Shown: positions 2,031-55,210 of the stretch, piece after piece
Numbering within the stretch: position 1 is the stretch's first letter
Layout: each line of letters opens with the position of its first letter
Assembly: GCA_947650795.1 (NCBI GenBank)
Contig: CANSWR010000001.1
Span: forward strand, 64,398 to 128,397
Source of the DNA: an uncultured Bacillota bacterium
GTDB taxonomy: Bacteria; Bacillota_I; Bacilli_A; RF39; UBA660
DNA: 64,000 nucleotides
Direction: 5' to 3'
Translations under genes and position numbers: made by a program
The notes under the pieces: generated by a model
The model's input: only the letters and a program-made list of their open reading frames with translations
Databases searched by the model: none
What the model was told of the DNA's origin: nothing

Positions 2031-2035
2031 AATAT

Positions 2036-20955: not shown

Positions 20956-21217
20956 TTGACAAACAAACATATTTATTATAAAATATCAACATAAATCGTT
21001 GAGAAAGAAGAGTAATATTAGACACTATTTATAGAAAGCCAAGTATGATGGAAATTGGTAATAAGACTAATATGAATAAAAACTTTTGAGTGGCAAATGC
21101 CCGGTTAATACCGTTACAAATATTGAGAAATCAAGTTATTGATAAATAAGGGTGGTACCACGAATTAAAACTCGTCCCTTAATAACAATAACTTTTTTAT
21201 TTTAAGGAGGAAATATT
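20956..21217 (+). promoter_or_regulatory. T-box riboswitch leader of lysS, with promoter, stem I, F-box, T-box and terminator
   Basis: TTGACA, 17-nt spacer, TAAAAT promoter. Stem I elements GTTGAGAAAGAAGAGTA. F-box CCGTTA. T-box AAGGGTGGTACCACG, followed by a terminator hairpin and a T-run. Confidence 0.7.
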
Positions 21218-22693
21218 ATGAGAGAATTTACAGAACAGGAGACTGTAAGAAGAGAAAAATTAGCTAGCATTAAAGAAATCTGCAACCCTTACCCAGAAAA
21301 ATTTGAACGTACTCACACATTAAAAGAAGCACAACAATTAAAAGATGGAGAAATAAATATATCTTTAGCAGGAAGAATCGTATTTATGAGAAAAATGGGA
21401 AAACTAAGCTTTGTAAAAATTAGAGACTTAGAAGGTAGCATGCAACTAGAAATTAAAATAGATATAATTGGAGAAGAAAAATATGAATTCTTTAAAAAAT
21501 TAATAGACACTGGAGATTTTATAGGCGCTAATGGAGAAATATTTACAACACAAACAGGAGAGAAAACACTTAGAGTTAGCACACTAGAATTTCTAGGAAA
21601 AGCACTGAGACCACTTCCAGAAAAATTTCATGGATTACAAGACACAGAACTTAAATATAGACAAAGATATGTTGACCTTATAACAAATGAAGAAGCAAGA
21701 AACATTTTCCTAGGAAGAAGTAAACTTTATGCGTTTATTCATAAATATTTAGGAGAAAATGGATTTTTACAAGTCGAAACACCAATATTACAAACAGCAG
21801 TATCAGGTGCCTCAGCAAAACCTTTCTTCACACATCATAATGCACTAGACATAGATTGTAACCTTAGAATCGCACCTGAGATTTATTTAAAAGAATGTAT
21901 TGCAGGAGGATTTGATAAAGTCTATGAAATATCAAAATGCTTTAGAAACGAAGGTATGGATACAGAACACTTACAAGAATTTACTCAAGTAGAATGGTAT
22001 GCATCTTACTGGAATTTTGAAGATAACATAAAATTTTATACTAACTTTATAAAAGAACTTATAAAAGAATTAACAGGAACAACCACTATTGAATATCAAA
22101 ATAACACATTAGACTTTGGTAAAGAAAATTGGAATAGAATAAACTATTGTGAAGAAATGAACAAAATTTTTGGTTTTGACTTCTTAAATATAACTGAACC
22201 AGCAGAATTAAAACAAAAAATAGTAGAAAAAGGTTTATTTACTTTACAAGAACTTGAAGAATATCACTCATTAAGTCAAATAATAGACTTCGTATATAAA
22301 AATAAAGTTCGTAAAAACATCATAGAACCAACAATAATTTATAACTATCCAGCAGTTTTAATACCTTTAGCAAGAAGAAACGATGAAGATCCAAGAAGAA
22401 TAGATGTATTTCAAGTAATCGCAGCAGGTACAGAGCTTTGCAAAGCATACTCAGAATTAGTAAACCCTCAAACTCAAAGAGAAACATTTGAAGACCAATT
22501 AAAAGCAAAAAGTCAAGGCGATGATGAAACTATGGACTTAGACGAAAATTTCTTACTAGCTATGGAACAAGGAATGCCACCAATATCTGGATTAGGATTT
22601 GGAATAGACAGACTTATGATGCTAATTTATAATGCACCTTCAATAAGAGATGTAGTATTATTTCCATTAATGAAACCAGAAAATAATAACTAA
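21218..22693 (+). CDS. lysS: Lysine--tRNA ligase (class II)
   Basis: N-terminal OB anticodon-binding domain, class II motifs and a C-terminal GLGFGIDRLMMLI segment. Confidence 0.95.
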   Translation: MREFTEQETVRREKLASIKEICNPYPEKFERTHTLKEAQQLKDGEINISLAGRIVFMRKMGKLSFVKIRDLEGSMQLEIKIDIIGEEKYEFFKKLIDTGDFIGANGEIFTTQTGEKTLRVSTLEFLGKALRPLPEKFHGLQDTELKYRQRYVDLITNEEARNIFLGRSKLYAFIHKYLGENGFLQVETPILQTAVSGASAKPFFTHHNALDIDCNLRIAPEIYLKECIAGGFDKVYEISKCFRNEGMDTEHLQEFTQVEWYASYWNFEDNIKFYTNFIKELIKELTGTTTIEYQNNTLDFGKENWNRINYCEEMNKIFGFDFLNITEPAELKQKIVEKGLFTLQELEEYHSLSQIIDFVYKNKVRKNIIEPTIIYNYPAVLIPLARRNDEDPRRIDVFQVIAAGTELCKAYSELVNPQTQRETFEDQLKAKSQGDDETMDLDENFLLAMEQGMPPISGLGFGIDRLMMLIYNAPSIRDVVLFPLMKPENNN

Positions 22694-39113: not shown

Positions 39114-39761
39114 CTACTCTCCTAGTTTTTGCACAACATTAAGCTTATTATTATCTTTAATTAAATAAAATACTCCTGTTTTATCATAACCTAAATCTTT
39201 TTCATACTCCCATTGAGCACTGACTTTATATGCCTCATAACTATTATCATTATAAGTATAACTTTCACTTACTATTTCATTAATAGTTACACTACTTACA
39301 ATAGGTAATTCTTGAACTCTATCACCATAAACATTATTTTTAATATGTCCATACATAGTATCACCTGAATGCATGATAAAATTATCTAACATATCATGAT
39401 GAATAAATTCTGTTCCTCCAATATCACTACTAGTTATTTTATTATTCAAAGTATAAAAATCAGTAACAAATAATTTAGTTAACCCACCTGCATATTCTTC
39501 CCAATTTAATTCTTCTTTACTCAAAATCTCTTTTAATTCATCAAAATATGTTTTATATAAAGAAGTATCTAAATCATCCAAAGTATATCCATAAATCTCT
39601 AAATTATCTAATTCCTTTTTTGATTTAATTTCTTTATCATCTGTTATAAAGAAATCAAACACAACTTTAACAGAAGTTACAGCAACTATTATAACAGTTA
39701 TTACAATAACTGAAAAGTAAAATAATCTATTTCTATTTATTTTTTTCTGCTTCTTTTTCAT
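39114..39761 (-). CDS. Membrane-anchored hypothetical protein, cotranscribed with the LtaS-like gene
   Basis: 215 aa with an N-terminal TM helix. The upstream LtaS-like gene overlaps it by 29 nt. Confidence 0.5.
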   Translation of the reverse strand: MKKKQKKINRNRLFYFSVIVITVIIVAVTSVKVVFDFFITDDKEIKSKKELDNLEIYGYTLDDLDTSLYKTYFDELKEILSKEELNWEEYAGGLTKLFVTDFYTLNNKITSSDIGGTEFIHHDMLDNFIMHSGDTMYGHIKNNVYGDRVQELPIVSSVTINEIVSESYTYNDNSYEAYKVSAQWEYEKDLGYDKTGVFYLIKDNNKLNVVQKLGE

Positions 39762-41832
39762 TTAAAATCACCCTTTCCAAATTATCTTTTTCCTTATCTA
39801 TTAAATCATGTACTATTATAGATTTACTTACATCTAATCTTTCATCAGCATACTCTTTTATTCTTTCTATATATAGAGTATCTATAGGTTCCTCTGTTAA
39901 AGGTATGTATTCTTCTCTTAAATTATTATAAAATCCTTTATTAGTTAATACATCTCCATTAGGAAAAACTACTATCTTTTCATTACCAGAAAAAATATCA
40001 TTACCAAGAGCATATTTATAATCAAATCCAAACATATTTGCTATTGTAGGAAGCACATCCCACATACCCATAACATCTGTAACTTCTCTTTTTAAACTAT
40101 CACTACCATCCCAAATAATTAATGGAGTATTCTTAATTAAATCATATTTATAATTATCAAAACTTACAAATGTAGGATCATCTTCACTTTTTATATCTCC
40201 TGTCATTGGATCATAATTATATAAAAGACTTAAATTCTTTTTACCTAATTTACTTTCATGATCACCATAAAATACAATAATTGTATCTTCAAGCATTCCA
40301 CTTTGTTTTAAAGCTTCAAAAAATTCTCCCAAAGCCTCATCAGCATAATGTGCACTTTTTAAATAATTACCCATCTCTGTGTCTTCTAAATATGGAACTG
40401 TCACAGTCTCTCGAATCTCTATTCCATTCGCATCATATTCACCTGTAGGTTTTTCAAAAGTAATGCTAAAATCTAATTCTCCATATTTATCTACATCTGC
40501 AAAAGGACTATGATTGCTAAGTGTTATTACAGTACCCATAAAAGGTTTATTACTATTTCTAATTTCTGTCAAAATTGGCATAACTTGATTAAAGAAAGAT
40601 TTATCAGAAAGACCAAGACCTATAAAATTCTCATCATTCTTATCTGAAGGTACTATAAAACTATCTTTAGCATAAAACTTTTTATATCCTAATGACTTAT
40701 ACATAGTTTCTCTATTCCAATAACTAGCTGCATTTGCATGCATACTGAACGTATAATATCCTAAAGAATTAAATTTCTTTTGAATAGTTTCATAATTTCT
40801 ATTAGAATAATTAACAAATACTGTACCACTAGAACTAGGTAATAATCCAGTACTCAAAGTAAACTCTGTATCACTACTAGTCCCTATACTTATTTGTGGA
40901 TAAAAACTTGAAAAATATAACCCTTCATGAGCAATTTTATTCAAATTTGGAGTTATCTCTATTCCATTAATTTCTAAATCTATCAAATAATTTTGAATAC
41001 TTTCTCCATGTATAAAGATAACATTTTTACCCTTAAATATATCAGTATAATCATTTTTCTCATGAGTATAATCTTTATTAGCATAAAAATCTCTAAAAAC
41101 TTTTGCCGAACTATCATATCCAAACATAGGACTTATAGATGGTTGAATACTTTGAACTAAATCATTAAAGGTATAAAAATATAGACCAAATCTCTGTACT
41201 ATAAAATCTCTATTCCATTGCTTAACTAATCTACTTCCTTCTTGATTAGTTAAAGTAATAATGATGAAGAATACAATTAATAAAGATACTGAAGATGTTC
41301 TAGTAAACATTTTCTTACCTTTTTCATATCTCCCTACAGTAAAATGATATTTCTTCTTAGAAAGTAATCTATTGACAATTATCAAAGTTATAGGCGCTAA
41401 TAAATATATGAAATAAATAATTTTTAACTTGTGAGTTACAGAATCACTTACCTCTCCTAGCATAGACAAAGTTCCTAATAAACTTACACTAACAAAACTC
41501 ATATAAAATGTATAATAAATATGATTTAAAATACATAAAAATGTATAAAAAGCATTAAGACCAAAAAAATACTTAAATTGATGCTTAGGATTTATCAAAT
41601 ATCCAAAAGATCCTAATAAAAGCACAACAGCTAAATCACAAAGTAACGCTTTAAAATCGTTAATAATCCCTATAGTAAAATACCTAAGAAGAAAACTTAT
41701 TAAAACTGAAGTAATTACATAAGTCAAAAACAAAATATTTGTAGAAAAATATTTTTTTAATCTTCTAAGTAATCTCTTATATGTTAGTTTAAAACGTTCA
41801 GCATTAAACTTCTTTTTAATCTTTTCAAACAT
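39733..41832 (-). CDS. LtaS-family lipoteichoic acid synthase / phosphoglycerol transferase (sulfatase-fold)
   Basis: Five N-terminal TM helices and an extracellular alkaline-phosphatase-superfamily domain (IFIHGESIQ, GTSSDTEFTLSTGLLP, SNHSPF). Confidence 0.8.
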   Translation of the reverse strand: MFEKIKKKFNAERFKLTYKRLLRRLKKYFSTNILFLTYVITSVLISFLLRYFTIGIINDFKALLCDLAVVLLLGSFGYLINPKHQFKYFFGLNAFYTFLCILNHIYYTFYMSFVSVSLLGTLSMLGEVSDSVTHKLKIIYFIYLLAPITLIIVNRLLSKKKYHFTVGRYEKGKKMFTRTSSVSLLIVFFIIITLTNQEGSRLVKQWNRDFIVQRFGLYFYTFNDLVQSIQPSISPMFGYDSSAKVFRDFYANKDYTHEKNDYTDIFKGKNVIFIHGESIQNYLIDLEINGIEITPNLNKIAHEGLYFSSFYPQISIGTSSDTEFTLSTGLLPSSSGTVFVNYSNRNYETIQKKFNSLGYYTFSMHANAASYWNRETMYKSLGYKKFYAKDSFIVPSDKNDENFIGLGLSDKSFFNQVMPILTEIRNSNKPFMGTVITLSNHSPFADVDKYGELDFSITFEKPTGEYDANGIEIRETVTVPYLEDTEMGNYLKSAHYADEALGEFFEALKQSGMLEDTIIVFYGDHESKLGKKNLSLLYNYDPMTGDIKSEDDPTFVSFDNYKYDLIKNTPLIIWDGSDSLKREVTDVMGMWDVLPTIANMFGFDYKYALGNDIFSGNEKIVVFPNGDVLTNKGFYNNLREEYIPLTEEPIDTLYIERIKEYADERLDVSKSIIVHDLIDKEKDNLERVILNEKEAEKNK

Positions 41833-41895
41833 TCTACATTACCTCGGTATAAATATTATATCAAAAACATATAACATTTTCAATTAATTGAAAAA

Positions 41896-41913
41896 ACACT
41901 ATGTATACATAGT
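41896..41913 (-). terminator. Rho-independent terminator after the third TasA-like gene
   Basis: Perfect 9-bp palindrome CACTATGTA/TACATAGTG, followed on the minus strand by TTTTTT. Confidence 0.6.
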
Positions 41914-41914
41914 G

Positions 41915-42508
41915 TCAGTTATTAATAGTTGGTCTCTGTGTTGTTCCATTAGGATTTTGATCATTATAGTATATATCTGACTCTCCTAAATCTGCATAAA
42001 GAAGTGCAGAAAAAGTTTTTCCTTGATTTTGATTTTGTACTACACCTGTCTCAGGTAATTCCATAGTTAAAGTGTATGTTACACTTTGAGCCTCATTGCT
42101 AGCTGGAAAAGTCTTACTAACTATAGTATATGACTTCTTTTCTCCTGTAGAATCTAAAACTAAAGTTCCTACTGCACCATCTGACACAGAATCAACTTTA
42201 GCAGTTAACTCTGGCATATCATTAGTATAATCTAATTTAATATAAACTGTCTGTTCAACAACAGAAGGTGCTACTGTAATAGAAAAAGTTTTACTCTCTT
42301 TCCACCCAGGTTCAATATCAGTAGAAGCAACAAAATCACTACCACCATCAAATGTTACTCCACCTATAGTACTTGTAGAAATTACAACATCTCCTGGATT
42401 TCCTTCTATACTACCAGTAAAATAAGCAAAAGAGACACCCACCGCTGTAACTAAAACAGTCATTATTGTTAATACACTTAAAACAATCTCATACTTCTTT
42501 CCACTCAT
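41915..42508 (-). CDS. TasA/camelysin-like secreted protein with SipW-cognate-type signal peptide (paralog 3)
   Basis: Signal region ...TAVGVSFAYFTGS. TasA-like segments IEPGWKESKTFSITV and C-terminal QGKTFSALLYADL. Confidence 0.6.
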   Translation of the reverse strand: MSGKKYEIVLSVLTIMTVLVTAVGVSFAYFTGSIEGNPGDVVISTSTIGGVTFDGGSDFVASTDIEPGWKESKTFSITVAPSVVEQTVYIKLDYTNDMPELTAKVDSVSDGAVGTLVLDSTGEKKSYTIVSKTFPASNEAQSVTYTLTMELPETGVVQNQNQGKTFSALLYADLGESDIYYNDQNPNGTTQRPTINN

Positions 42509-42534
42509 AATAAACCTTCTTTCTGCCTCACTTA

Positions 42535-43131
42535 TTAAAGATTAGGATCTCCTTTAGCAACTATCTTTCCTTTAAAACTCTTACCTTGTAAAAAGTCTTG
42601 AGAAACTCCACTCTCTGTCAACATAAGTTTCAATTCACAATTATGAGTTACTCCAGTATTTATCATACCAGTTCCTATATTAGTACTTACTGTAGGAACC
42701 TTTCTAGGACTAGATACTTTAACTAAAGTATTCTTCTCACTTTCATTAATTTCTTTCCCATCCTTAACACTTGTACATTCTAAAGTATACACAAAATTAG
42801 CGTCATTTATATAATTCTCTTCTATTTCCCAAGCTAAAGTATAATTAGCATATAAATTATCTTCTGTACTTGTATTAACTATTGAAAAATTTAAAGTATC
42901 ACTCCATCCTGGAAGAATATCTTCACCATTTATACTATCAGTAGTTTCAAACATAGCAAAAACCTGAGCACTCTTCAATACTGTTTCACCATTTTCTTCA
43001 TTACCAACTACATTAGCAATATAAGCTGCATATGTTGTTCCAACTGCAACTGCTATAAAAGATAAAACTGGAATAACTGCTATAATAATTTCTTTAATTT
43101 TTGAATTTTTATTCTTTTTCTCTTCTTCCAT
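42535..43131 (-). CDS. TasA/camelysin-like secreted protein (paralog 2)
   Basis: Signal AVGTTYAAYIAN. TasA-like segments ILPGWSDTLNFSIVN and C-terminal QGKSFKGKIVAKG. Confidence 0.55.
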   Translation of the reverse strand: MEEEKKNKNSKIKEIIIAVIPVLSFIAVAVGTTYAAYIANVVGNEENGETVLKSAQVFAMFETTDSINGEDILPGWSDTLNFSIVNTSTEDNLYANYTLAWEIEENYINDANFVYTLECTSVKDGKEINESEKNTLVKVSSPRKVPTVSTNIGTGMINTGVTHNCELKLMLTESGVSQDFLQGKSFKGKIVAKGDPNL

Positions 43132-43296
43132 ACTTTCACCATTATTCTAAACTAATATAATAATATCATTTTTCCCATAAAAAAACAACAGTTCCACCAA
43201 AATTTTACAAAATATATTAAACGCAAAAAAAGTTAGCCTAATCATCGCTAACTTAATTTTCTTATTAATATAGTAAATTACTATGTTAAACTATTC

Positions 43297-43935
43297 TTAT
43301 TGTACATTTGGTTTAGTAGTTGTTCCGCCTTGATTAGCATCGTTATAATAAACACCTTCTGCACTTTCTAAACCACAACTTACTGTAGCATTAAATCTCA
43401 TACCTTGTTGAGCATTTTGATCAGTACCAGTTTCTTTGAAAGTAATTGAATACTTCATAGTCTTAGACTCACCAGATTTTAATGTTCCCTCAGCAATTTT
43501 AATCTTTTGAGGAGTACCAGCTGGTGTTAGTTCAGTAGTACCATCTGTATCAAAAGTTGCATATTTAACTATTGGTAATCTCTTATCATTAGCAGTAGCA
43601 TCAATATTATCTCCATTTACATTTAAGAACATATCAATTACTTCATTCCCAGTTACTTCTAGATTACATACATAATTAACATCAAAATCAGATGTTCCTA
43701 AAGATACTGTAACATTTTTTTCTTCAGAAGTCTTACCAGGTAAGATACTAGTTAAATTCAAAGCATCAGCTGTATAACTAACTTTACCTAAAGTACCAGT
43801 TGTAGCTTGTACATCTGCACTATTTCCACTCATTGTTGTAGTGAAATACGCGAATGTAGCACCTATAATAGCAACTAATAAAGTAGCAATACCAATTACT
43901 GATAGAAAAATAGTTTGTCCTCTGTTATCGTTCAT
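43297..43935 (-). CDS. TasA/camelysin-like secreted protein with SipW-cognate-type signal (paralog 1)
   Basis: Signal IIGATFAYFTTT, which matches GGTFAYFSD-type SipW-cognate signals. TasA-like segments QATTGTLGKV and C-terminal QQGMRFNATV. RBS GGAGG. Confidence 0.6.
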   Translation of the reverse strand: MNDNRGQTIFLSVIGIATLLVAIIGATFAYFTTTMSGNSADVQATTGTLGKVSYTADALNLTSILPGKTSEEKNVTVSLGTSDFDVNYVCNLEVTGNEVIDMFLNVNGDNIDATANDKRLPIVKYATFDTDGTTELTPAGTPQKIKIAEGTLKSGESKTMKYSITFKETGTDQNAQQGMRFNATVSCGLESAEGVYYNDANQGGTTTKPNVQ

Positions 43936-44143
43936 AGTCCTTTACCTCCTTTACTATATACAATCATATCAAGACTTACTAATAAAAGCAAGAAAAAGTT
44001 CAAAAAAAACACGACATTTTACAACAATAAAACACAAATAACTATTAAATTATTACTAAATTTACTTATAATATTTTACATTTAACAAATTATAATAAAT
44101 AGTATATATTTTATACTTTTCGCTTTATTTTACTATTAAAAAA

Positions 44144-44158
44144 CTGCAAAATTTGCAG
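44144..44158 (-). terminator. Terminator after the 560-aa repeat protein
   Basis: Palindrome CTGCAAAATTTGCAG immediately after the stop, followed on the minus strand by a T-run. Confidence 0.5.
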
Positions 44159-44159
44159 C

Positions 44160-45842
44160 TTATCTAGTACCCACTTTTAATCTTCCAAAGAACACTTTTC
44201 CTATATCAAAACTTTGATCATTATTCATATTCTTAAATTCATAAGTAAATTCATAGTTATGTGTTTCTCCTGGATTAATAGTCACATTAGTGATTATCTT
44301 CTGTCCATTATTAGCAGAATATAATACTCTTCCCTTATCTGGAGCAATTAACTCCTGATTATTTCTCTTAACTCCAAAATAAGGTCTATTTTCATATGTA
44401 AAACTATTTACCATATCATCCCATTCAATATCATAAGAAATAACTTCACTAGTATTATTAGTAACTTTAAAAGATTTAGTAGCTTTCCATCCTGGAACCA
44501 TCTCTACTGACTTAGGCAGAACATCTAAATAATCTAAACTATAAGTTAATCCTTTTTCATTTATATTGGCATCTTTAACTACATTCATAGATGTATCAAT
44601 TAAATCTCTATCTGCTATTCTATCTTCATTAGTATCTAAATTAGCGTCTGCTTTTCCATCATCATTTAAGTCAATATTAATATCTGCTTTTCCGTCTCCG
44701 TCTATATCTATATTCAAATTCGGAATTCCATTTTTATCTAAATCACAATTTAAGAAACATTTTCCATTCGCTTCTTGATTCATTAAATTCTTATCTGGTT
44801 TTCCATCTCCATCTGTATCTATATTAATGTCTGCTTTTCCATCTTGATCATAATCCAAATTTAGATAATTTCCATCTCCCATACTTATATTAATATCTGC
44901 CTTGACATCTCCATCTGTATCACAATTCAAATCACACTTACCATCACCAGTGGTATCAATATTTATTTCAGCAAGTCCATCATTATTTGTATCTATGTTA
45001 ATATCTGCTTTTCCATCTCCATCTAAATCAACATTTATCACTGGAAAATAACCATCTTTTATTAAACAATTAAGAACACATTTTCCATCTGTTTCTTGAT
45101 TGACTAAATTTTCATCTGGTTTTCCATCTCCGTCTGTATCAAGTCCGAAAATAGCTTTTTCATAATCATTTCCATATGTAACATTAACATCTGGTTTACC
45201 ATCGTTATTTGTATCTATGTTAATATCTGCCTTGCCATCTCCATCTGTATCTATATTTACCTGTGCTGTTCTTAACCCTAAAACATCACAATTTAAATCA
45301 CACTTTCCGTTTCCATTCTTATCTAAATTAATTCTAGCAACACCTGTTCCAGAAAAATCTAAATTAGTATCAGGATATCCATCTCTATTTGTATCACAAT
45401 TTATATCACATTTCCCATCATTATTTGTATCTTGATTAACTAAATTTTTATCCGCTTTTCCGTCTCCATTTGTATCTATATTAAAAAATGAAATTAAAGT
45501 CTTCTTATAACCTATATTAATATTTGGCTTATTATCTCCATCTGTATCACAATTAACATTACACTTGCCATCTCCATTTATATCTACATTTAAGTCTGGC
45601 CATCCATCTCCATCTGTATCTATATTAACGGCAAGAGATTTTCTAGCTTGAAAATAATTGATTATGACCACAGTAGTAGCAATAGTAGCACCTATAAATA
45701 TTAGCAAAGCAAAAATCATCATAACTTTTTGCTTACCTCTCTGTCTCTTATTCTTAGGATCTTTAAAATATAACCTTTCTTCTTCTATGATTCTTCTTTT
45801 CTCTTCTTCTCTTCTTATATCTTCATATCTTTCTCTATTCAT
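44160..45842 (-). CDS. Signal-anchored cell-surface protein with TSP3-like Ca-binding Asp repeats and a C-terminal TasA-like domain
   Basis: Charged cytoplasmic N-terminus, one TM helix (MMIFALLIFIGATIATTVVIINYF), about 30 DxDGDGKxDxNxD repeats, and a C-terminal domain with VPGWKATKSFKV...GKVFFGRLKV. It has its own TTGATT-17-TATCAT promoter and a GGAGA RBS. Confidence 0.8.
   Translation of the reverse strand: MNRERYEDIRREEEKRRIIEEERLYFKDPKNKRQRGKQKVMMIFALLIFIGATIATTVVIINYFQARKSLAVNIDTDGDGWPDLNVDINGDGKCNVNCDTDGDNKPNINIGYKKTLISFFNIDTNGDGKADKNLVNQDTNNDGKCDINCDTNRDGYPDTNLDFSGTGVARINLDKNGNGKCDLNCDVLGLRTAQVNIDTDGDGKADINIDTNNDGKPDVNVTYGNDYEKAIFGLDTDGDGKPDENLVNQETDGKCVLNCLIKDGYFPVINVDLDGDGKADINIDTNNDGLAEINIDTTGDGKCDLNCDTDGDVKADINISMGDGNYLNLDYDQDGKADINIDTDGDGKPDKNLMNQEANGKCFLNCDLDKNGIPNLNIDIDGDGKADINIDLNDDGKADANLDTNEDRIADRDLIDTSMNVVKDANINEKGLTYSLDYLDVLPKSVEMVPGWKATKSFKVTNNTSEVISYDIEWDDMVNSFTYENRPYFGVKRNNQELIAPDKGRVLYSANNGQKIITNVTINPGETHNYEFTYEFKNMNNDQSFDIGKVFFGRLKVGTR
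44640..45640. repeat. Degenerate tandem repeats encoding Asp-rich TSP3-like units within the 560-aa gene
   Basis: Periodic GATACAGATGGAGATGG-type units. They produce spurious plus-strand Ser/Phe/Pro-rich ORFs in the track. Confidence 0.7.
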
Positions 45843-45979
45843 ATTCTCTTCTCCTATTATCTAATATAAATGATAACATAAACAAATTGTTAAATCAAAT
45901 GAAAAGATTACTACTTATCATAAATTTTACGAACTAATTTATACAAAAAGAACTGCTATAATTAATAGCAATTCTAATA

Positions 45980-48900
45980 TTAATTCATTGTATCTACTCT
46001 AAGTTTAGCACTAAATGTCTTATCTTTATCAACATCTTGATTAAATTCCGTATTTCTAAACTCATAAGTTATTGTATAAACGTGAACCTCTCCAGGTTGA
46101 ATAGAAACATTTTCAACTAAACTCTTACCTTGATCAATATTTCTAGGAACTCTAGCAGTTTGAATATCTGCCACTACATTTCCATTTCTTGATAAACCAT
46201 AATATAAATTATTAGTTTCTGTAAATGTATTTATTATATTTGTCCAACTTATTTTATATTTAAGAACAGATGTACTATTATTCATAATAATAAATGTTTT
46301 ACTTCCTGTCCATCCAGGTACTAAGGCATTACTATTTAATTGACTTGTATCAACAAATTTCAACTGGCCAAGTATTACTTCCTCATCATCGCATTTTTCA
46401 TCACACTCGCCATCTCCGTCTGTGTCACATTCTTTAGTACAGTTTCCAGCATCGTCATAGCAGTTATAATCACATATTCCGTCCCCATCTGTATCACAAT
46501 TCTTCGTACACATATTAGGTTTATCTGGATTTTCATAGCAATTCAAGTCACAGACTCCATCTCCATTTGTATCACAATTCTTTGTACATACTCCTGGGTT
46601 ATCTGGATCATTATGACAATTTACGTCACAGACACCATCTCCATCAGTGTCACAGTTCTTTGTACATAAATCTGGTCTGTCTGGGTTTTCATGACAATTT
46701 CTATCACAGACTCCATCTTTATTATCATCACAATCATTCTGACAAGTACAGTTTCTATCACAAATTCCGTCTCCGTTATCATCACAATTTTTAGTACACA
46801 CATCTGGATTATCTGGATTTTCATTACAATTTAAGTCACAGACTCCGTCTCCATCTAAATCACAGTTCTTTGTACATACTCCTGGTTTGTCTGGATTTTC
46901 ATTACAATTTACATCACATTTTCCATCTCCATCTGTATCACAGTTCTTTGTACACACTCCTGGCTTATTTGGGTCTTCATAACAGTTTCTATCACAAATT
47001 CCATCTCCGTTGTCATCACAATTCTTTGTACATACTCCTGGTTTATTAGGGTCATCATAACAATTTACATCACAAACACCATCCCCATTTGTGTCACAAT
47101 TCTTTGTACATACTCCTGGTTTATTTGGGTCTTCATAACAGTTTCTATCACAGACTCCATCTCCGTTGTCATCACAATTCTTTGTACATACTCCTGGTTT
47201 ATTTGGATCATTATGACAATTCACATCACAAATTCCATCTCCATTTGTATCACAATTCTTTGTACATACATCTGGTCTATTTGGATCTTCATAACAGTTT
47301 CTATCACAGATTCCATCTTTATTATCATCACAATTTATTTTACAATAGCAATTTCTATCACAAATTCCGTCTCCGTTATCATCGCAATTTTCCTTACAAG
47401 TACAATTTACATCACAAATTCCATCTCCATTTGTGTCACAATTCTTTGTACATACTCCTGGTTTATTTGGGTCTTCATAACAGTTCATATCACAGATGCC
47501 ATCTCCATTGTTATCACAATTTTTAGTACATACTCCTGGTTTACTTGGATCTTCATAGCAGTTTACATCACATTTTCCGTCTCCATCTGTATCACAATTT
47601 TTAGTACACACATTTGGTTTATTCGGATTTTCATAACAATCTACATCACATTTTCCGTCTCCATCTGTATCACAATTCTTTGTACATACTCCTGGTTTAC
47701 TTGGATCTTCATAACAGTTTAAATCACAAATTCCATCTCCATTATTATCACAATTCTTTGTACATACATCTGGTTTTTTAGGGTCTTCATAACAATTTAC
47801 ATCGCATTTTCCATCCCCATTTGTATCACAGTTTTTAATACATTTATCATTATTATCATAACAATTTTTATCACATTTATCATCGCCGTTAATGTCACAG
47901 TTTTTATCACACTTTCCGTCTCCGTCTGTATCACAATTCAAATCACACTTGCCATCTTTATCTGTATCACAATTTAAGTCGCACTTTCCGTCTCCGTTTG
48001 TATCCAAATTCATATCTGGCTTTCCGTCTCCATCTGTGTCACAGTTTAAATCACAAATTCCGTCTCCATCTGTATCTTGGTTAGTAAGATTATCATCTGG
48101 TTTTCCATCTTTATCTGTATCACAGTTATAGTCACATACTCCATCATTATCTACATCTATATTTATATCTGGTTTTCCATCCCCATCTACATCTATATTT
48201 GTATCTGGCCATTCATCTCCATTTGTGTCACAGTTTAAATCACATACTCCGTCTCCATTTGTATCTTGATTTATTGGATTTCTATCTGGTTTTCCATCTC
48301 CGTTTGTATCAACATTTACATCTGGTTTTCCGTCCCCATCTATATCTAAATTCATATCTGGTAACTTATTCCCATTTGTATCTATATTTGTATCTGGTTT
48401 CCCATCTCCATCTATATCACAGTTATAATTACAGTTTCCAGTTCCATCAGTATTACAGTTTAAGTCACACTTTCCGTCTCCGTCTGTATCTATATTAATA
48501 TCTGGTTTTCCATCTCCATCTAAATCCAAATTAGTATCTGGCCATCCATCTTTATCTGTATCACAATTCAAATCGCACTTGCCATCTCCATTTGTATCCT
48601 GATTTACAAGATTTTTATCTGGTTTTCCATCTCCATCTGTATCTATATTAAATATTGGTTTATCATCAGGATCTCCTTTTATAGAAATATTAATATCTGG
48701 TTTTCCATCTCCATTTGTATCACAATTGACATCACACTTTCCGTCTCCGTTTGTATCTATGTTTAAATCTGGTTTCATATCTCCATCTAAATCACAGTTC
48801 AAATCACATTTTCCGTCTCCATCTGTGTCTATATTAATATCTACCTTGCCATCTCCATCTAAATCCAAATTAGTATCTGGCCATCCATCATTATCTATAT

Positions 48901-49348
48901 CACAGTTCAAATCACACTTTCCATCTCCATCTGTGTCTTGATTCATTAAATTCCAATCTGGTTTTCCATCTCCATTTGTATCAACATTAAATATAGCTGC
49001 ATGTAACTTTCCAAATTTAGGATAACTTATATTAATATCTGGTTTTCCATCTCCATCTGTATCACAGTTTACATCACATTTTCCATCATTATCTAAATCT
49101 ATATTTAAGTCTGGCCATCCATCCCCATTCAAATCAACATTAAGTTTATAAGTATTATTTCTAATATAATTAACAATAGACCAAGTTCCAAAAGCAGTAA
49201 GTCCTAAAAGTATAACAAAAAATATAAATATTAAAATAAATCTTTTTTTCTTCTCATCCTTTGTCTCAGCCATCTCATAATAAAGGCCATCCTCTTCTAT
49301 AATTTTTTTCTCTTCCTCAGTATAAGGGTCTCTTTTTACACTCTTCAT
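45980..49348 (-). CDS. Giant (1122 aa) signal-anchored surface protein: TSP3-like Asp repeats, about 20 Cys-rich 26-aa modules, and a C-terminal TasA-like domain
   Basis: Cytoplasmic N-terminus and TM helix (FILIFIFFVILLGLTAFGTWSIV). DxDGDGKPDxNxD repeats. The repeated module CTKNCDTNGDGICDVNCYEDPNKPGV. C-terminal ALVPGWTGSKTFII...DKTFSAKLRV. The terminator is a TGCTAT...ATAGCA hairpin. Confidence 0.85.
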   Translation of the reverse strand: MKSVKRDPYTEEEKKIIEEDGLYYEMAETKDEKKKRFILIFIFFVILLGLTAFGTWSIVNYIRNNTYKLNVDLNGDGWPDLNIDLDNDGKCDVNCDTDGDGKPDINISYPKFGKLHAAIFNVDTNGDGKPDWNLMNQDTDGDGKCDLNCDIDNDGWPDTNLDLDGDGKVDINIDTDGDGKCDLNCDLDGDMKPDLNIDTNGDGKCDVNCDTNGDGKPDINISIKGDPDDKPIFNIDTDGDGKPDKNLVNQDTNGDGKCDLNCDTDKDGWPDTNLDLDGDGKPDINIDTDGDGKCDLNCNTDGTGNCNYNCDIDGDGKPDTNIDTNGNKLPDMNLDIDGDGKPDVNVDTNGDGKPDRNPINQDTNGDGVCDLNCDTNGDEWPDTNIDVDGDGKPDINIDVDNDGVCDYNCDTDKDGKPDDNLTNQDTDGDGICDLNCDTDGDGKPDMNLDTNGDGKCDLNCDTDKDGKCDLNCDTDGDGKCDKNCDINGDDKCDKNCYDNNDKCIKNCDTNGDGKCDVNCYEDPKKPDVCTKNCDNNGDGICDLNCYEDPSKPGVCTKNCDTDGDGKCDVDCYENPNKPNVCTKNCDTDGDGKCDVNCYEDPSKPGVCTKNCDNNGDGICDMNCYEDPNKPGVCTKNCDTNGDGICDVNCTCKENCDDNGDGICDRNCYCKINCDDNKDGICDRNCYEDPNRPDVCTKNCDTNGDGICDVNCHNDPNKPGVCTKNCDDNGDGVCDRNCYEDPNKPGVCTKNCDTNGDGVCDVNCYDDPNKPGVCTKNCDDNGDGICDRNCYEDPNKPGVCTKNCDTDGDGKCDVNCNENPDKPGVCTKNCDLDGDGVCDLNCNENPDNPDVCTKNCDDNGDGICDRNCTCQNDCDDNKDGVCDRNCHENPDRPDLCTKNCDTDGDGVCDVNCHNDPDNPGVCTKNCDTNGDGVCDLNCYENPDKPNMCTKNCDTDGDGICDYNCYDDAGNCTKECDTDGDGECDEKCDDEEVILGQLKFVDTSQLNSNALVPGWTGSKTFIIMNNSTSVLKYKISWTNIINTFTETNNLYYGLSRNGNVVADIQTARVPRNIDQGKSLVENVSIQPGEVHVYTITYEFRNTEFNQDVDKDKTFSAKLRVDTMN
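46400..47950. repeat. Near-identical 78-nt tandem DNA repeats (about 20 copies) encoding the Cys-rich TSP3-like modules
   Basis: Visible periodicity, for example ...CAATTCTTTGTACATACTCCTGGTTTATTTGGGTCTTCATAACAGTTTCTATCACAGACTCCATCTCC... recurring every 78 nt. Spurious plus-strand ORFs at 46340-46669, 47089-47526 and 47213-47722 derive from these repeats. Confidence 0.85.
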
Positions 49349-49417: not shown

Positions 49418-50470
49418 CTATACACCATTACTCTTATTTTTTTTACACAATTTATCATAAATTATATTTAACAATATAAATAACCCAGTAACAATAACAA
49501 ATAAATAAAAACTTAACCCCCTACTAATAAGCATTGCACTACCAAGAATTGATGTAGGAAACAAAGACTTAAACATTAACATAAATGCCCCTTCACTAGC
49601 GCCCACAGTTCCTGGCATAGGCATATAAGAAACAGCCATACTAAGAGAAGCTTGTAAAAACACAAATGTAAAAAAGTTTTCTCCTTGTAAACCTAAAGAC
49701 TTAAAAACAAAATAAGGAACACTATAATACAAAATCATCTGAACTAAAGTTGTTAAAAAGATTTTAAATAGAATTAGTTTATGATTTTTTAAATAAACTG
49801 AACATTCATGATACTCATCTATTTGCTTCAAGCATTTATCATAAAATAAATCACTTTTTTTATAATGAATTTTCTTTAATATTTTATAAACTAAATTAAT
49901 TATCTTTGTAACACTAACCTTAGAAAAAATCATCATAATCAAGAAAGTTAAATAAAGAATATTAATAATCATTCCCAAAAACATAAAATATTTCATACTA
50001 CTAACAGAATTCATAAGTATATCAAAATTAATAATTAATCCTGTTAAAGATAACACACATAGTACTGCTTGAAAACTAGAAAGTTCTACTAACAAAGCAA
50101 GAGCACTATGAGAAATAGAAAGACCATCTTTAGCCATAAAATACAACTGAGCAGGATCTCCACCAGTTGAAGATGGAGTTATAGAACTAAAAAAGAATCC
50201 AACACATGCGTACTTAAACGATGATATAAAACTGACATCATGTCCTGTAGTTTTTAAAACTCTTCTAATGTTAATCCCCTCTCCACTTATAAAAGCAAAC
50301 ATACATAAAATTCCTATAAAAATAAACTTAAAATCAGTCTTATAAATATTATTAAGTATCAAATTAATATCATGATTTTTAAACACAACAAAAAAAGTAC
50401 AACTAACACACAGAAAAAATAACAATAAGTAAACTATTCTAACCTTTCTACTTTTCATCATAACTATCAA
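49418..50470 (-). CDS. Flippase-like / LPG_synthase_TM (UPF0104) family membrane protein
   Basis: 350 aa, polytopic, with TPSSTGGDPAQLYFMAKDG. This family is commonly linked to glycolipid glycosyltransferases. Confidence 0.6.
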   Translation of the reverse strand: MIVMMKSRKVRIVYLLLFFLCVSCTFFVVFKNHDINLILNNIYKTDFKFIFIGILCMFAFISGEGINIRRVLKTTGHDVSFISSFKYACVGFFFSSITPSSTGGDPAQLYFMAKDGLSISHSALALLVELSSFQAVLCVLSLTGLIINFDILMNSVSSMKYFMFLGMIINILYLTFLIMMIFSKVSVTKIINLVYKILKKIHYKKSDLFYDKCLKQIDEYHECSVYLKNHKLILFKIFLTTLVQMILYYSVPYFVFKSLGLQGENFFTFVFLQASLSMAVSYMPMPGTVGASEGAFMLMFKSLFPTSILGSAMLISRGLSFYLFVIVTGLFILLNIIYDKLCKKNKSNGV

Positions 50471-51113
50471 GTCTCCTAAAATTATAACCTCTTTCCAACA
50501 AAATAGGCAAAGCTTTTTCTAAAGCTTTTAACGTTCTATAAGGAGCATTATTTTTTCCTCTTCCATCATGCAAACATATAATATCTCCTCCACGAACTCT
50601 ATTAATAATTCTTGTTTTTATTTCATTCTCACTAATATTAGCACGCCAATCCTCTGCCATAACATTCCAAAAAACTAATTTTAATTTATACTTACTAACA
50701 AAATACAAACTAAATAAATTTATATTACCCCAAGGTGGTCTATAAAACTTTAAATCTTTTAAAACTCTTGTACTATCTCTAAAATCTTTAAAAGTTCTAA
50801 AAAATCCCATAAACCATGCATTTTTATGTTTTAAAGAATGAATACCTATTAAATGTCCTTCATGATACATTCTTTCTATTAAATCCTTATTTTTTAAAGC
50901 AAAATCTCCTACCACAAAGAAAGTACATTTAATATCATATTTCTTTAACAAATCTAATATATGATTAGTATATATACTAGGACCATCATCAAACGTCAAA
51001 TACAAATTATTTCCATTTTTAGGACGTTTTAACTTATAAAATAACTTATAAAAATACGTTGGAATTACATCATATATTATAAATAGAACAATAACTATTA
51101 TAACCCACTTCAT
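50448..51113 (-). CDS. Polysaccharide deacetylase (CE4, NodB homology)
   Basis: LTFDDGPS motif, His-rich motifs (HSLKH, HDGRG) and an N-terminal TM helix. Confidence 0.8.
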   Translation of the reverse strand: MKWVIIVIVLFIIYDVIPTYFYKLFYKLKRPKNGNNLYLTFDDGPSIYTNHILDLLKKYDIKCTFFVVGDFALKNKDLIERMYHEGHLIGIHSLKHKNAWFMGFFRTFKDFRDSTRVLKDLKFYRPPWGNINLFSLYFVSKYKLKLVFWNVMAEDWRANISENEIKTRIINRVRGGDIICLHDGRGKNNAPYRTLKALEKALPILLERGYNFRRLDSYDEK

Positions 51114-52150
51114 AATAATTCACCAGTATAACTAACGTTTTCAAACTCTAACTTAACATTCCTCATATTATTTTTCATAACATTAATTTTTTCCTTTGCT
51201 TCTACCATTTCTATTATATCACTATGAATATATTTTTTATTCTTCCAAAGAACTTTTCCTATTCCTTTACGTTCAATATATAAAGCATTTCCTACTTCTT
51301 GAGCTAAAAAAGGTTTTAAACATAAAATAGGAGTTTCACTTCTTATAGCTTCACTCATTGTAATCCCACCTGCTTTAGTAACTATTAAAGTAGCTTTATT
51401 CATATACTCATAAACTTTATCTGTGAATCCTATAATATTTATATTTTTATATTTCATATATAACTTATTATAAAGTTTTTTATTATACCCTAAAATAACA
51501 TTAACATGTATATTATCATACTTTTCAAGAACATCTAAAGAATTACTTATACCAGGAATTAACCCTAATCCACCGCCCATTATTAAAACTTCCGTTTTTC
51601 CTAAACTAGATTTATCACAAAACTCACTTTTTACGGGAATACCACTAACACATATATCTTTATTATTTATACCATTATACATTAAAAATTCCTTAGTCTC
51701 ATTAGAAGATACAAAATATTTTGAAGTTCCACTATTTAACCATTCTCTATGAACATCCACATCCGTTATAACCGTATACATAATTATTTTACTTCCTGTT
51801 GTTTTCTTAAAAGCAGAAATATACTGTGAACATATAGGTAATACAGAAATAATCAAATCTATATTTTTTTCTTTTATTAATCTTTCTATTTTCTTAACAT
51901 TAACCTTTTTTAAAGGAGCACTAGTACTTTTAGAAGCATACTTATTAAGAAAATTATACAAATGAGAACATTTTCCTACTAAAAAATCAAATAAACAATA
52001 AATTATTTTATTTAACTTAGGAAATAAATATTCTATTAAATCTATTACTTCTACATCACAATTTCCCTCTTTAATTATTTTATCCTTTATACTATAAGCA
52101 GCACTCATATGTCCAAAACCAAACTTACCTGCTAAAATTAAAACATTCAT
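51110..52150 (-). CDS. Glycolipid glycosyltransferase (MGDG-synthase/UgtP-like, GT28)
   Basis: MNVLILAGKFGFGHMSAAYSI is an MGDG_synth-type N-terminus. The C-terminal part is GT-B, including the segment VITKAGGITMSEAI. Confidence 0.7.
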   Translation of the reverse strand: MNVLILAGKFGFGHMSAAYSIKDKIIKEGNCDVEVIDLIEYLFPKLNKIIYCLFDFLVGKCSHLYNFLNKYASKSTSAPLKKVNVKKIERLIKEKNIDLIISVLPICSQYISAFKKTTGSKIIMYTVITDVDVHREWLNSGTSKYFVSSNETKEFLMYNGINNKDICVSGIPVKSEFCDKSSLGKTEVLIMGGGLGLIPGISNSLDVLEKYDNIHVNVILGYNKKLYNKLYMKYKNINIIGFTDKVYEYMNKATLIVTKAGGITMSEAIRSETPILCLKPFLAQEVGNALYIERKGIGKVLWKNKKYIHSDIIEMVEAKEKINVMKNNMRNVKLEFENVSYTGELL

Positions 52151-53191: not shown

Positions 53192-55210
53192 CTATTCACC
53201 TTTATTCTTTCTCATCATAATTAGTGCTTCATTTATAGCATCATCAATAGTGGTTGACTCTGCATTTATCATAGAATATCCTACACTAGCGCCATATTCA
53301 TAAGGCAAATTTTTAAATTCTTTTAATAATTTATTAACATATGTTACAATTTGCTTTTCTTCATATCCTACTAAATAAACTAGAAATTCATTTCCATCAG
53401 TTCTAATTATTTCAGAATTTTCTCTTTGAGTTTTTATTAAAATTCCAGCAGCACCCTTAATTTGTTTGTCACCTTCCTCATGTCCCTTAGTATCATTTAT
53501 AGTTGATATACTATTAAGATCAACTACAACAATAGCTTGAGGATAAATCTTATTAGACTCCCAATAATTAAGATTATCATTCAAATAATTTCTATTCTTT
53601 AAATTAGTCATGACATCTAAATACATCATTTTATCTTCTTTTTTAATTTTCTTAGTAACTTTAACTTTCTTATTAAACTTAAATAATAAGAATGATATTG
53701 CTAAAACTAATACCAAAATATAAGTTATATTACTTATAACAAACTGAATAATTATATTTGCATTAACATCATGAAGTGAACTACTAACTGCCATATTATG
53801 AACAGACTTATTACCTAAAGTAGTTAGATAAAAATTAAACATATCATTAAGTACTTTATTATCATTATTCAATAAGAAATTATTACTAACATCACTCATA
53901 CCTATATATTTAATAACATAATTTTTAAGCTTACTATTTTTATAAAAATCAAATGTACTTTTCTCCATTACTATTACATCTTTATTATTCAAACTTTTAA
54001 ATAATTCTTCATAATTATTAAATACATGAACCTCTATTTGTTTTTCTCTTATAAAATTAAATAATCTAGTCTTATCAACCATCTTAATATTATCATCTTT
54101 TATACTTTCTAAACTCTCAACTGGTATAACATTATCTTGATGCGTAATAATAACATAATTTATATTACCTAAACCAACACTTGATTTATAATTAGAATTA
54201 CTAATATTATAATAATTAAGTACCAAATCAACTTTCTTTTGATTTAAAGCTTCATTTAATTTCTGTACATCTGTATATTTAATATATTTATATGTAGCGC
54301 CTGTCATATCTGCAAATAAACTTAAATATTGATTAGTAACCCCACTAAAACTATTATTGATTTTACCTTCAAACGGCATGTTGTCTATATATCCAACTAA
54401 CAAGTCATCCCCAGTAATAGTTTCCTTTTCAAGTTCACTTAATTTATAAGATTTATAATAAAGTGATAAAAAATGTTTATTAATACTTGAATATATATTA
54501 TCTTCCCATTTATTGTAAAACTTTTTAAAGACACTACTTAATATATCTTCATTACTATCTGGCGTAGATAAAACATAATGTGAGTGTAGTCCTTCTATAT
54601 GATACACAATATTATATTTATTATACACTATATCTGTCATATATTTATACATAGGAACAATCGCGTATATTATAGTATCATTCATAGATTCATCAATAGT
54701 TTCAAAATCTCCATATCCTTGAAAACTTAAGCTATAACTTTTTAAATAATCTGATATATAATCTTTATCTGTACTAATAGTGCCTATAACTTGATTACTA
54801 ATTGTAGATAAATCCGTAATTTGATTATCCAGTTTACTTATCAAAACATAATGATCAGTATAAAAAACTAAATCATTCTTTGAAACATCATTTTTATTTA
54901 AAAGCTTATAAGCATCTGCTGAATTACCATCAGTACTTACAGTAATATTAAATGTAAGACCAGTATCTTTTTCCATTTCTCTTAAATAATCATAAAATAC
55001 TCCTTCACCATTTTCACTAAAAATTGGCAAATTAGATTGAACATTAACCTTTTTAACATCAGAAACATTACTATTAATCCAATTTTTTTCAGCAAAAGAA
55101 TAATTATTTTTAGAATTATTTACATAATACAATATTCCAAATATAAGTACTAATAATATTAAAATTAACCCCGTTATTAAAAAATATTTCTTTTTATTAT
55201 TTTTTTTCAT
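53192..55210 (-). CDS. Membrane sensor protein with a large extracytoplasmic domain and a C-terminal degenerate GGDEF domain (DGNEF)
   Basis: TM helix, about 470 aa outside, a second TM helix, then a GGDEF-like fold (AIVVVDLNSISTINDTKGHEEGD...RTDGNEFLV). The GG(D/E)EF motif reads DGNEF. Confidence 0.7.
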   Translation of the reverse strand: MKKNNKKKYFLITGLILILLVLIFGILYYVNNSKNNYSFAEKNWINSNVSDVKKVNVQSNLPIFSENGEGVFYDYLREMEKDTGLTFNITVSTDGNSADAYKLLNKNDVSKNDLVFYTDHYVLISKLDNQITDLSTISNQVIGTISTDKDYISDYLKSYSLSFQGYGDFETIDESMNDTIIYAIVPMYKYMTDIVYNKYNIVYHIEGLHSHYVLSTPDSNEDILSSVFKKFYNKWEDNIYSSINKHFLSLYYKSYKLSELEKETITGDDLLVGYIDNMPFEGKINNSFSGVTNQYLSLFADMTGATYKYIKYTDVQKLNEALNQKKVDLVLNYYNISNSNYKSSVGLGNINYVIITHQDNVIPVESLESIKDDNIKMVDKTRLFNFIREKQIEVHVFNNYEELFKSLNNKDVIVMEKSTFDFYKNSKLKNYVIKYIGMSDVSNNFLLNNDNKVLNDMFNFYLTTLGNKSVHNMAVSSSLHDVNANIIIQFVISNITYILVLVLAISFLLFKFNKKVKVTKKIKKEDKMMYLDVMTNLKNRNYLNDNLNYWESNKIYPQAIVVVDLNSISTINDTKGHEEGDKQIKGAAGILIKTQRENSEIIRTDGNEFLVYLVGYEEKQIVTYVNKLLKEFKNLPYEYGASVGYSMINAESTTIDDAINEALIMMRKNKGE

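Follow-up and report, generated by a model that had tools for sequence, protein, structure and literature searches.

How is the growth of a TasA-type donor-strand fibre stopped, and what fastens the fibre to the cell? The question is raised by five consecutive minus-strand genes in a 64,000-nucleotide stretch of contig CANSWR010000001.1 from an uncultured Bacillota bacterium, referred to below as the window. Two of these genes encode giant proteins, G1 and G2, and three encode small proteins of about 200 residues, S1, S2 and S3 (Table 1). An initial annotation of this DNA had described five such genes sharing one domain; the open reading frames (ORFs) are present at the sizes it gave, and the common domain was recovered both by BLASTP and by profile alignment. 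Our analysis suggests that the giants are acceptor-only membrane anchors of a TasA-type fibre built from the small proteins, a reading drawn from sequence to which we assign a probability of roughly 0.55.

A common domain in five neighbouring proteins

All-against-all BLASTP connected S1 with S3 (8e-21) and with S2 (1e-10), the C-terminal domains of the two giants with each other (6e-30), and the G1 C-terminal domain with S2 (1e-5). Alignment by hhalign of a profile of 45 giant C-terminal domains with a profile of 163 small proteins, both drawn from 78 related genomic loci, gave a probability of 99.7% (E 6.9e-26). In this comparison, positions 10-138 of the G1 C-terminal domain pair with residues 46-188 of S3, and S3 residues 30-45 have no counterpart in the giants. 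As the alignment starts only at S3 residue 46, the giants hold the subunit core without the stretch that directly follows the predicted cleavage site. When the two giant C-terminal domains served as queries of an exhaustive profile search, 1185 representative proteins or clusters were retrieved at E<=1e-3; a word-indexed homologue search with the G1 domain returned one 84-aa fragment only. S3 has 577 homologues, none annotated past 'hypothetical', and no homologue is labelled as an S-layer protein or a sortase pilin, a label that would have spoken against the fibre system proposed in the initial annotation.

Membership in the TasA/camelysin family was assessed from sequence, from structure models and from genomic context. 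S3 passes the PF12389 (Peptidase_M73) threshold narrowly, with 23.4 bits for a cut-off of 22.5 (E 6e-5, profile positions 11-184 of 196). Several of its close homologues carry a precomputed PF12389 assignment, and this is the commonest family among 54 domain-only relatives (9/54, best E 8.8e-8). An AlphaFold2 model of the last 150 residues of G1 was confident (predicted local distance difference test, pLDDT, 87.3; predicted template modelling score, pTM, 0.82), and Foldseek ranked TasA (5of1_B) 11th among 350,542 PDB chains for this model (probability 1.00, TM-score 0.47). The S3 monomer model had a pLDDT of 72.6, with residues 1-45 below 50, and matched the archaeal bundling pilin 7ueg and the FimF/FimG pilins at low scores. 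On the sequence evidence, the common domain is a distant member of the TasA/camelysin superfamily; the structure models are compatible with a TasA-like fold and not specific for it. The TasA/camelysin-like character claimed in the initial annotation thus stands in its sequence part, through PF12389, and is weaker in its structural part, since the score to 5OF1 is just 0.47.

A comparison of gene neighbourhoods, suggested with the initial annotation, revealed that the gene set recurs among the 78 related loci, many of which come from records named uncultured Bacilli, 'Tenericutes', Mollicutes, or Clostridium sp. CAG:628 and CAG:524. Counting only loci with enough flanking DNA, a SipW-type peptidase gene lies at most 1.5 kb downstream of the small genes in 42/63 loci, a repeat-rich giant with the C-terminal domain is encoded upstream in 28/46, and giant and peptidase occur together in 17. 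The peptidase of the relatives, of about 204 aa, scores 102 bits with TIGR02228 (archaeal/endoplasmic reticulum-type signal peptidase I; cut-off 51.85) and 97 bits with the SipW model, under the cut-off of the latter. Two gene orders were observed. The clade of the window has BrkB, two giants, three or four small genes, LtaS and TilS, with no adjacent peptidase gene; in the second order, a DUF6273-like gene and a single giant are followed by YfhO, which is on the opposite strand, and then by two small genes and SipW. It is the genomic context of the related loci that settles the family assignment, and we regard it as very probable that the locus of the window is a TasA-superfamily fibre locus.

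The related loci also provided observations of separate interest. The YfhO glycosyltransferase gene of the second locus type stands between the giant and the small genes (L022, 7343-9892). A rabbit-gut relative shows a striking local expansion, with nine tandem small TasA-like genes after a single giant of 978 aa (L015, 5606-12065). In another locus (L016, 5548-5983), overlapping ORFs just upstream of the giant gene repeat the peptide FWYPKNFCYTNT at regular spacing, which looks like a translated direct-repeat array, possibly CRISPR. A homologue of a relative's SipW, P0384, was set aside because it belongs to a different sample and species. Many secreted multi-domain proteins (245-1254 aa) likewise carry the common domain at their head, and none of them is encoded in the window. 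In P0150, P0162, P0169, P0171, P0202, P0210 and P0213, a SipW-type signal and the TasA-like domain come first and are followed by large unrelated regions (DUF6273-like modules, leucine-rich-type repeats, Ig-like arrays); multi-domain proteins of this kind could be tip or cargo subunits of such fibres.

Subunit signals, giant stalks and a proposed fibre anchor

The three small proteins begin with a short polar stretch and a hydrophobic helix, which leads into ATFA↓YF in S3, VSFA↓YF in S1 and TTYA↓AY in S2 (the arrow marks the predicted cleavage site). The N-terminal motifs listed in the initial annotation (GATFAYFTTT, VSFAYFTGS and TTYAAYIAN) are present in the sequence, and their description as SipW-cognate-type signals agrees with the TasA-type motifs found here and with the SipW-type peptidase encoded directly downstream in related loci. 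The family consensus is G-A-T-F-A↓Y-F-T-x-x-[VIM]-x-G-N, that is, a predicted cleavage motif of [ST]-aromatic-A followed by an aromatic residue at +2, where the Phe corresponds to F29 of TasA. In TasA, the N-terminal strand (residues 28-38, with F29 and I32) completes the sandwich of the next subunit (PMC9674648). In the model for BsaA, the newest monomer, tethered at the membrane by its signal, receives the oligomer's free strand, after which SipW frees its N-terminus for the next round (PMC11580942). Given a post-cleavage consensus with Phe at +2, the small subunits fit this TasA/BsaA scheme. The amyloid-like fibre envisaged in the initial annotation is out of step with current understanding, in which TasA fibres are donor-strand polymers of folded subunits. 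The S3, S2 and S1 types form three conserved classes, S2 being an orthologous class of its own across the window's clade of loci, which suggests one major and two minor roles.

Conservation is very uneven along the major subunit. Its N-terminal segment, GQTIFLSVIGIATLLVAI[IV]GATFA[YW]F, has a mean pairwise identity of 95% vs 36% in the cores (55 proteins). In 48 distinct DNA versions of the segment, third codon positions are 57% identical and first and second positions 97%, the latter figure being inflated by the exact motif match used to pick the set. Divergence at third positions next to conserved first and second positions indicates that selection acts on the N-terminal peptide. A sequence-specific role of the segment is implied, which could be recognition by SipW, holding of the precursor during strand exchange, or retention; cleavage is its likeliest fate because the identical segment also occurs in loci with an adjacent SipW gene.

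The giants are built differently. Both start with a charged N-terminus followed by a single hydrophobic helix and a very acidic region (pI 4.3 for G1 and 4.05 for G2), and they end in the TasA-like domain, so that the architecture given in the initial annotation, with a cytoplasmic N-terminus, one transmembrane helix and a long stalk carrying this domain at its far end, is also the best reading here. The stalk comprises about 360 residues in G1 and about 925 in G2. It contains D-x-[DN]-x-[DN]-G motifs, 16 in G1 and 47 in G2, spaced by 12 or 26 residues. The first repeat zone of G2 has a 12-residue period, and the second consists of about 18 copies of a 26-residue unit with four Cys each (108 Cys in G2). 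Across species, giants of the G1 type, the second giant, are nearly constant in length (532-582 aa); those of the G2 type, the first giant, range from 491 to 1122 aa. Neither giant of the window has an LPXTG motif, and their C-termini read ...RLKVGTR and ...LRVDTMN.

In giants of the window's clade, the cytoplasmic part carries a shared motif, (E)EKKIIEE(E/D)GLYFEEP, after which come basic residues and then the helix. Against a profile built from the signal and cleavage region of the small subunits, the giant N-termini scored 2.0 bits (G1) and -0.6 bits (G2), with unrelated membrane-protein controls reaching up to 11 bits, and the matches never extended into the cleavage part. A SipW-cognate signal in the transmembrane helix of the giants was accordingly not supported, the scores being inside the range of the control membrane proteins. 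Since a conserved cytoplasmic motif is unexpected in a discarded signal, and since the signal scores do not rise above control level, we read the giants as probable type II membrane proteins, with the N-terminus in the cytoplasm and the stalk and jelly-roll outside.

The repeats had been called thrombospondin-type-3-like, and this assignment was not recovered: TSP_3 (PF02412) matched neither full-length G1 or G2 at E<=1 nor three stalk segments at E<=10. The stalk matched only the calcium-loop part of FG-GAP (positions 8-18 of 37; 22.5 bits vs a cut-off of 22.1), together with a faint EF-hand loop match, and a PDB sequence search with it gave nothing. From these loop motifs the stalk is probably calcium-loaded. 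Matches to MSCRAMM/Sdr-Clf adhesins were rejected, at 37-99 bits vs cut-offs of 999-2500 and confined to the Asp-rich low-complexity part, as was a match to Lsa25.6, likewise Asp-rich low-complexity and far under the cut-off.

These features can be combined into a mechanism. S3, as the major subunit, and S1 and S2, as minor ones, would be exported by Sec and cut by a SipW-type signal peptidase after [ST]-aromatic-Ala. The freed N-terminal strand of one small subunit would then enter the jelly-roll of its neighbour and produce a polymer, as in TasA and BsaA. G1 and G2 would escape cleavage and be kept in the membrane by their conserved cytoplasmic tail and transmembrane helix, their acidic stalk presenting a C-terminal jelly-roll that lacks a donor strand and would therefore act as an acceptor-only domain. 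This domain would receive the donor strand left free where the fibre grows, at its cell-proximal end. A giant without a strand to give means that growth must stop once the strand of the oligomer has been taken, so that the fibre would be tethered to the cell, with the stalk setting the height. TapA, to which the giants had been likened in the initial annotation, is thought to start the TasA chain by lending a look-alike strand (PMC9674648); the analogy is thus inverted, as the giants have no equivalent of a donor strand and could only accept one.

Several results weigh against this proposal. No sipW was found by tblastn and hidden Markov model searches in the 64-kb window or in the 10 kb past each end (about 84 kb around the locus), so that the search suggested in the initial annotation came out negative over this range, and nine giant-bearing related loci have no adjacent SipW-type gene. 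The signals of S1-S3 match none of the NCBIfam models. Taken alone, S1, S2, G1 and G2 fall below the PF12389 threshold and are tied to S3 by BLASTP and hhalign; PDB sequence and profile searches with S3, the G1 C-terminal domain and the small-protein profile did not return TasA. The unrelated jelly-rolls of lambda gpJ and CUB score like TasA (TM-score 0.47) against the G1 C-terminal domain, which makes the likeness modest and unspecific. Calcium binding rests on a generic DxDxDG loop motif and on the borderline FG-GAP loop match.

The giants might instead be stand-alone calcium-dependent adhesins or spacers, with a jelly-roll that serves to bind a ligand or a second cell and takes no part in any fibre, their adjacency to the small genes resulting from local domain duplication. 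We consider this unlikely. In its favour, the G1 C-terminal domain alone was modelled as a complete, confident beta-sandwich, the domain is a versatile module heading many multi-domain surface proteins (245-1254 aa), and the unrelated YfhO gene sits between the giant and the small genes in many loci. Yet monomeric TasA is also self-complemented and polymerises nonetheless (PMC9674648), giants, small subunits and peptidase are linked in many species and in two different syntenies, and the anchors of AbpX loci, which follow a like logic, are predicted to co-polymerise (bioRxiv 10.64898/2026.01.04.697558). The Pfam family name would point to yet another function, with the small proteins acting as camelysin-type metalloproteases (Peptidase_M73) and not as fibre subunits. 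This we find scarcely credible, as none of the five sequences shows a metal-binding protease motif and CalY is considered likely to have been misidentified as a peptidase (PMC11580942).

Two further alternatives concern processing. In the window's clade, whose loci lack an adjacent sipW, the small proteins could remain uncleaved, held in the membrane by the invariant N-terminal helix and forming a surface coat, or else a filament in which this helix plays a structural part, as it does in type IV pilins. The near-invariant segment with its codon pattern of peptide selection and the negative sipW search over about 84 kb are in keeping with this idea, as is the K/R-G-Q followed by about 20 hydrophobic residues in the small subunits, which we take to resemble a class III signal. 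It is nevertheless improbable, because the identical segment is found in loci with SipW immediately downstream and ends in a TasA-type [ST]-aromatic-Ala site. An assignment to type IV pilins was rejected as such: Glu is missing at +5 of the segment, whose end is a type I cleavage motif, no pilus machinery genes were seen in the window, and the locus has no prepilin peptidase or pilus ATPase. Conversely, the giants could also be SipW substrates, released as very long spacer subunits that donate their N-terminus and accept a strand at the C-terminal domain. Several giants of the clade do show a TasA-site-like T-W/Y-S/A at the outer end of the transmembrane helix (GTWS in G2, GTWA in L007), but more distant giants lack it, the N-termini score at control level with the cleavage part of the profile never covered, and a conserved cytoplasmic motif of about 20 residues would be unexpected in a discarded signal. 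Cleavage of the giants therefore appears highly improbable.

The anchor proposal can be carried further, into a joint reading that we hold to be doubtful. The giants would then represent an undescribed class, uncleavable, membrane-embedded, acceptor-only TasA-fold terminators and anchors on a calcium-stiffened ruler stalk, and at the same time the invariant helix of the major subunit would be a sequence-specific assembly element and not a disposable signal. Under this joint reading, the helix might be kept next to the anchor until strands are exchanged, or might be retained altogether. If true, gut Bacilli with reduced genomes would possess a self-contained way of assembling wall-spanning fibres.

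Features and surroundings of the locus

The coordinates of the genes, of their predicted parts and of the hairpins are collected in Table 1. A 224-bp AT-rich spacer separates the hairpin after G1 from S3. The S3 gene is preceded by an AT-rich region of its own, and a consensus AAGGAGG ribosome-binding site can be seen in its sequence. No credible match to a riboswitch or other regulatory RNA was obtained in the fibre locus. At the DNA level, the repeats of the giants form 78-bp and 36-bp arrays with 60-85% matches, that is, diverged copies, and the identical locus is present on independently assembled contigs from several metagenomes; for both reasons, the repeats are not an assembly artefact. 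The plus-strand ORFs located within G2, 99-169 aa long (46340-46669, 47089-47722 and 48199-48498), were rejected as genes, being frame shadows of the repeats.

Table 1. Positions of the five genes, their predicted parts and terminator-like hairpins in the window
Feature	Residues	Position	Strand	Basis or remark
G2, 1122 aa		45980..49348	minus	ORF list
G2 cytoplasmic N-terminus	1-36	49241-49348	minus	
G2 transmembrane helix	37-59	49172-49240	minus	
G2 stalk zone 1	60-499	47852-49171	minus	12-residue DxDxDG repeats
G2 stalk zone 2	500-985	46394-47851	minus	26-residue four-Cys repeats
G2 C-terminal jelly-roll	986-1122	45983-46393	minus	
Terminator-like hairpin between G2 and G1		45949..45975	minus	consensus scan only
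G1, 560 aa		44160..45842	minus	ORF list
G1 cytoplasmic N-terminus	1-39	45726-45842	minus	conserved IIEEE(R/G)LYF motif
G1 transmembrane helix	40-61	45660-45725	minus	
G1 DxDxDG stalk	62-420	44583-45659	minus	
G1 C-terminal jelly-roll	421-560	44163-44582	minus	
Hairpin and T-run directly after G1 stop codon		44130..44158	minus	read from sequence; not listed by consensus scan
S3, 212 aa		43297..43935	minus	probable major fibre subunit
S3 signal	1-29	43849-43935	minus	ends ATFA↓YF
S3 putative donor-strand segment	30-45	43801-43848	minus	
S3 jelly-roll core	46-188	43372-43800	minus	
S3 conserved tail	189-212	43300-43371	minus	YYN...GTTTKP
S2, 198 aa	signal 1-35	42535..43131	minus	minor subunit class; signal ends TTYA↓AY; no C-terminal YYN tail
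S1, 197 aa	signal 1-28	41915..42508	minus	second minor subunit class; signal ends VSFA↓YF; YYN tail present
Terminator-like hairpin at S1 end		41895..41916	minus	consensus scan; marks cluster end

The window has a G+C content of about 27%, and its housekeeping genes are an ordinary Firmicute set (FtsH, TilS, ParAB, LigA, PcrA, LtaS). LtaS lies downstream of the fibre genes, and genes for an LPG_synthase_TM protein, a polysaccharide deacetylase and an MGDG synthase lie upstream (window 39733-41832 and 49418-52150); we cannot tell whether these lipoteichoic-acid and glycolipid surroundings reflect a recurring envelope link or a coincidence. Also upstream, 4 kb from the giants, a minus-strand gene (53192-55210) encodes a membrane protein of 672 aa with a GGDEF (diguanylate cyclase) domain and adjoins the BrkB-family gene, a constant flank of loci of the window type. 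As enzymes of cyclic di-GMP metabolism are reported near AbpX fibre loci, the GGDEF protein may, by analogy, regulate the fibre cluster.

Farther from the fibre genes, the window contains part of a Wadjet (JetABCD) anti-plasmid system on the minus strand (1374-3400; JetA 2036-3400, JetB 1374-2030), with JetC and JetD just outside its left edge (L086, 10001-16391). A plus-strand T-box leader (20990-21182; 103.7 bits) precedes a lysyl-tRNA synthetase gene (21218-22693). A gene about 8 kb past the left edge encodes a protein of 904 aa with SpaA and thioester (TED_2) domains (L086, 19600-21365). The organism thus appears to make sortase-type adhesins as well, and its wall is presumably of the normal Gram-positive kind. 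Sporulation-associated genes at the right edge and beyond (L083, 8599-12600), namely SpoVG, Veg, a YabG-type peptidase U57, YabP and DivIC, suggest that the organism may form spores.

Relation to known fibre systems

The TasA superfamily is now described as a group of donor-strand fibres that spans domains of life and whose loci encode a signal peptidase I together with minor subunits, tip proteins and anchors. The B. subtilis tapA-sipW-tasA and B. cereus sipW-tasA-calY operons resemble the window in their small secreted jelly-roll subunits with an [ST]-aromatic-Ala site and an aromatic residue at +2, in their paralogous major and minor subunits, in the PF12389 link and in the SipW-type peptidase of the operon, which is seen here in relatives only. 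They differ in that two membrane-anchored acceptor-fold proteins take the place of the strand-offering TapA-like protein and that no sipW adjoins the window genes; sequence similarity between TasA and the window proteins is detectable via profiles only. The sipW-bsaA-bsaB-bsaC locus of C. perfringens (PMC11580942) likewise encodes remote TasA homologues in an anaerobic Firmicute, and the published assembly model places growth at the membrane, where an uncleaved signal holds the newest subunit. Unlike the fibre proposed here, its BsaA subunits are locked by isopeptide bonds, type IV pilus genes aid secretion, and no giant anchor has been described.

The initial annotation could match the combination of features to no described system, which was too strong a statement, since anchors with a TasA-like or jelly-roll domain have been proposed in archaeal Tafi (PMC12337348) and in AbpX loci (bioRxiv 10.64898/2026.01.04.697558). 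Genes for the proposed Tafi anchors TafF, TafF1 and TafF2 neighbour those for the pilins and signal peptidase of a donor-strand filament of the TasA superfamily, and TafF1 and TafF2 have one transmembrane helix and a jelly-roll (PMC12337348). Tafi, compared here by its published description, differs in being archaeal and often Tat-dependent and in having no long repeat stalk between helix and jelly-roll. AbpX loci are TasA-superfamily fibre loci of Bacillota that also encode minor subunits, a dedicated anchor and a signal peptidase, and they share with the window acidic proteins, an involvement of calcium, which is putative for the window, and nearby diguanylate cyclases (here the GGDEF gene at 53192-55210). 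Their anchors carry SLH or LPXTG and are predicted to join the fibre by donor-strand complementation (bioRxiv 10.64898/2026.01.04.697558). Attachment is thus to the wall, by SLH or sortase, vs an N-terminal transmembrane helix in the window; calcium is placed at the strand-groove interface vs a predicted location in the repeat stalk, and the AbpX peptidase has ten transmembrane helices. In the published descriptions, anchors of the Tafi/AbpX type are marked by a membrane or wall anchor fused to a jelly-roll like that of the fibre subunit and encoded in one locus with it; the giants, with one transmembrane helix and a C-terminal subunit-like domain beside the subunit genes, share this arrangement.

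Chaperone-usher pili offer a functional parallel in unrelated proteins, with a two-domain, acceptor-only first subunit at one chain end, fused to a non-pilin region (FimH/PapG), and a special subunit that terminates and anchors the fibre (PapH). These pili are Gram-negative and need a chaperone and an usher, and FimH is located at the distal tip, whereas the giants would stand at the base. By analogy, the giants would be functionally closest to PapH or to the proposed TafF anchors of Tafi, and opposite to TapA. With the Tafi and AbpX anchors already proposed, an anchor fused to the subunit fold is not a new idea. What appears new here is the N-terminal signal anchor in a bacterium, the stalk of 360-925 residues rich in calcium-loop motifs and the pairing of giants, along with the wide spread in uncultured gut Bacilli and the invariant signal segment.

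Acidic repeat stalks combined with self-assembling subunits might be of use as display or hydrogel scaffolds. For the biology of the family, the locus would allow a study, in a Sec-dependent bacterial system, of how donor-strand fibres of the TasA type end and become attached to the cell, a question that has been answered only in part for TasA. The domain family is large, although the proteins carry no annotation but 'hypothetical', and the fibre locus recurs in many small-genome uncultured gut Bacilli; it therefore probably encodes a main surface or matrix structure of these uncultivated organisms.

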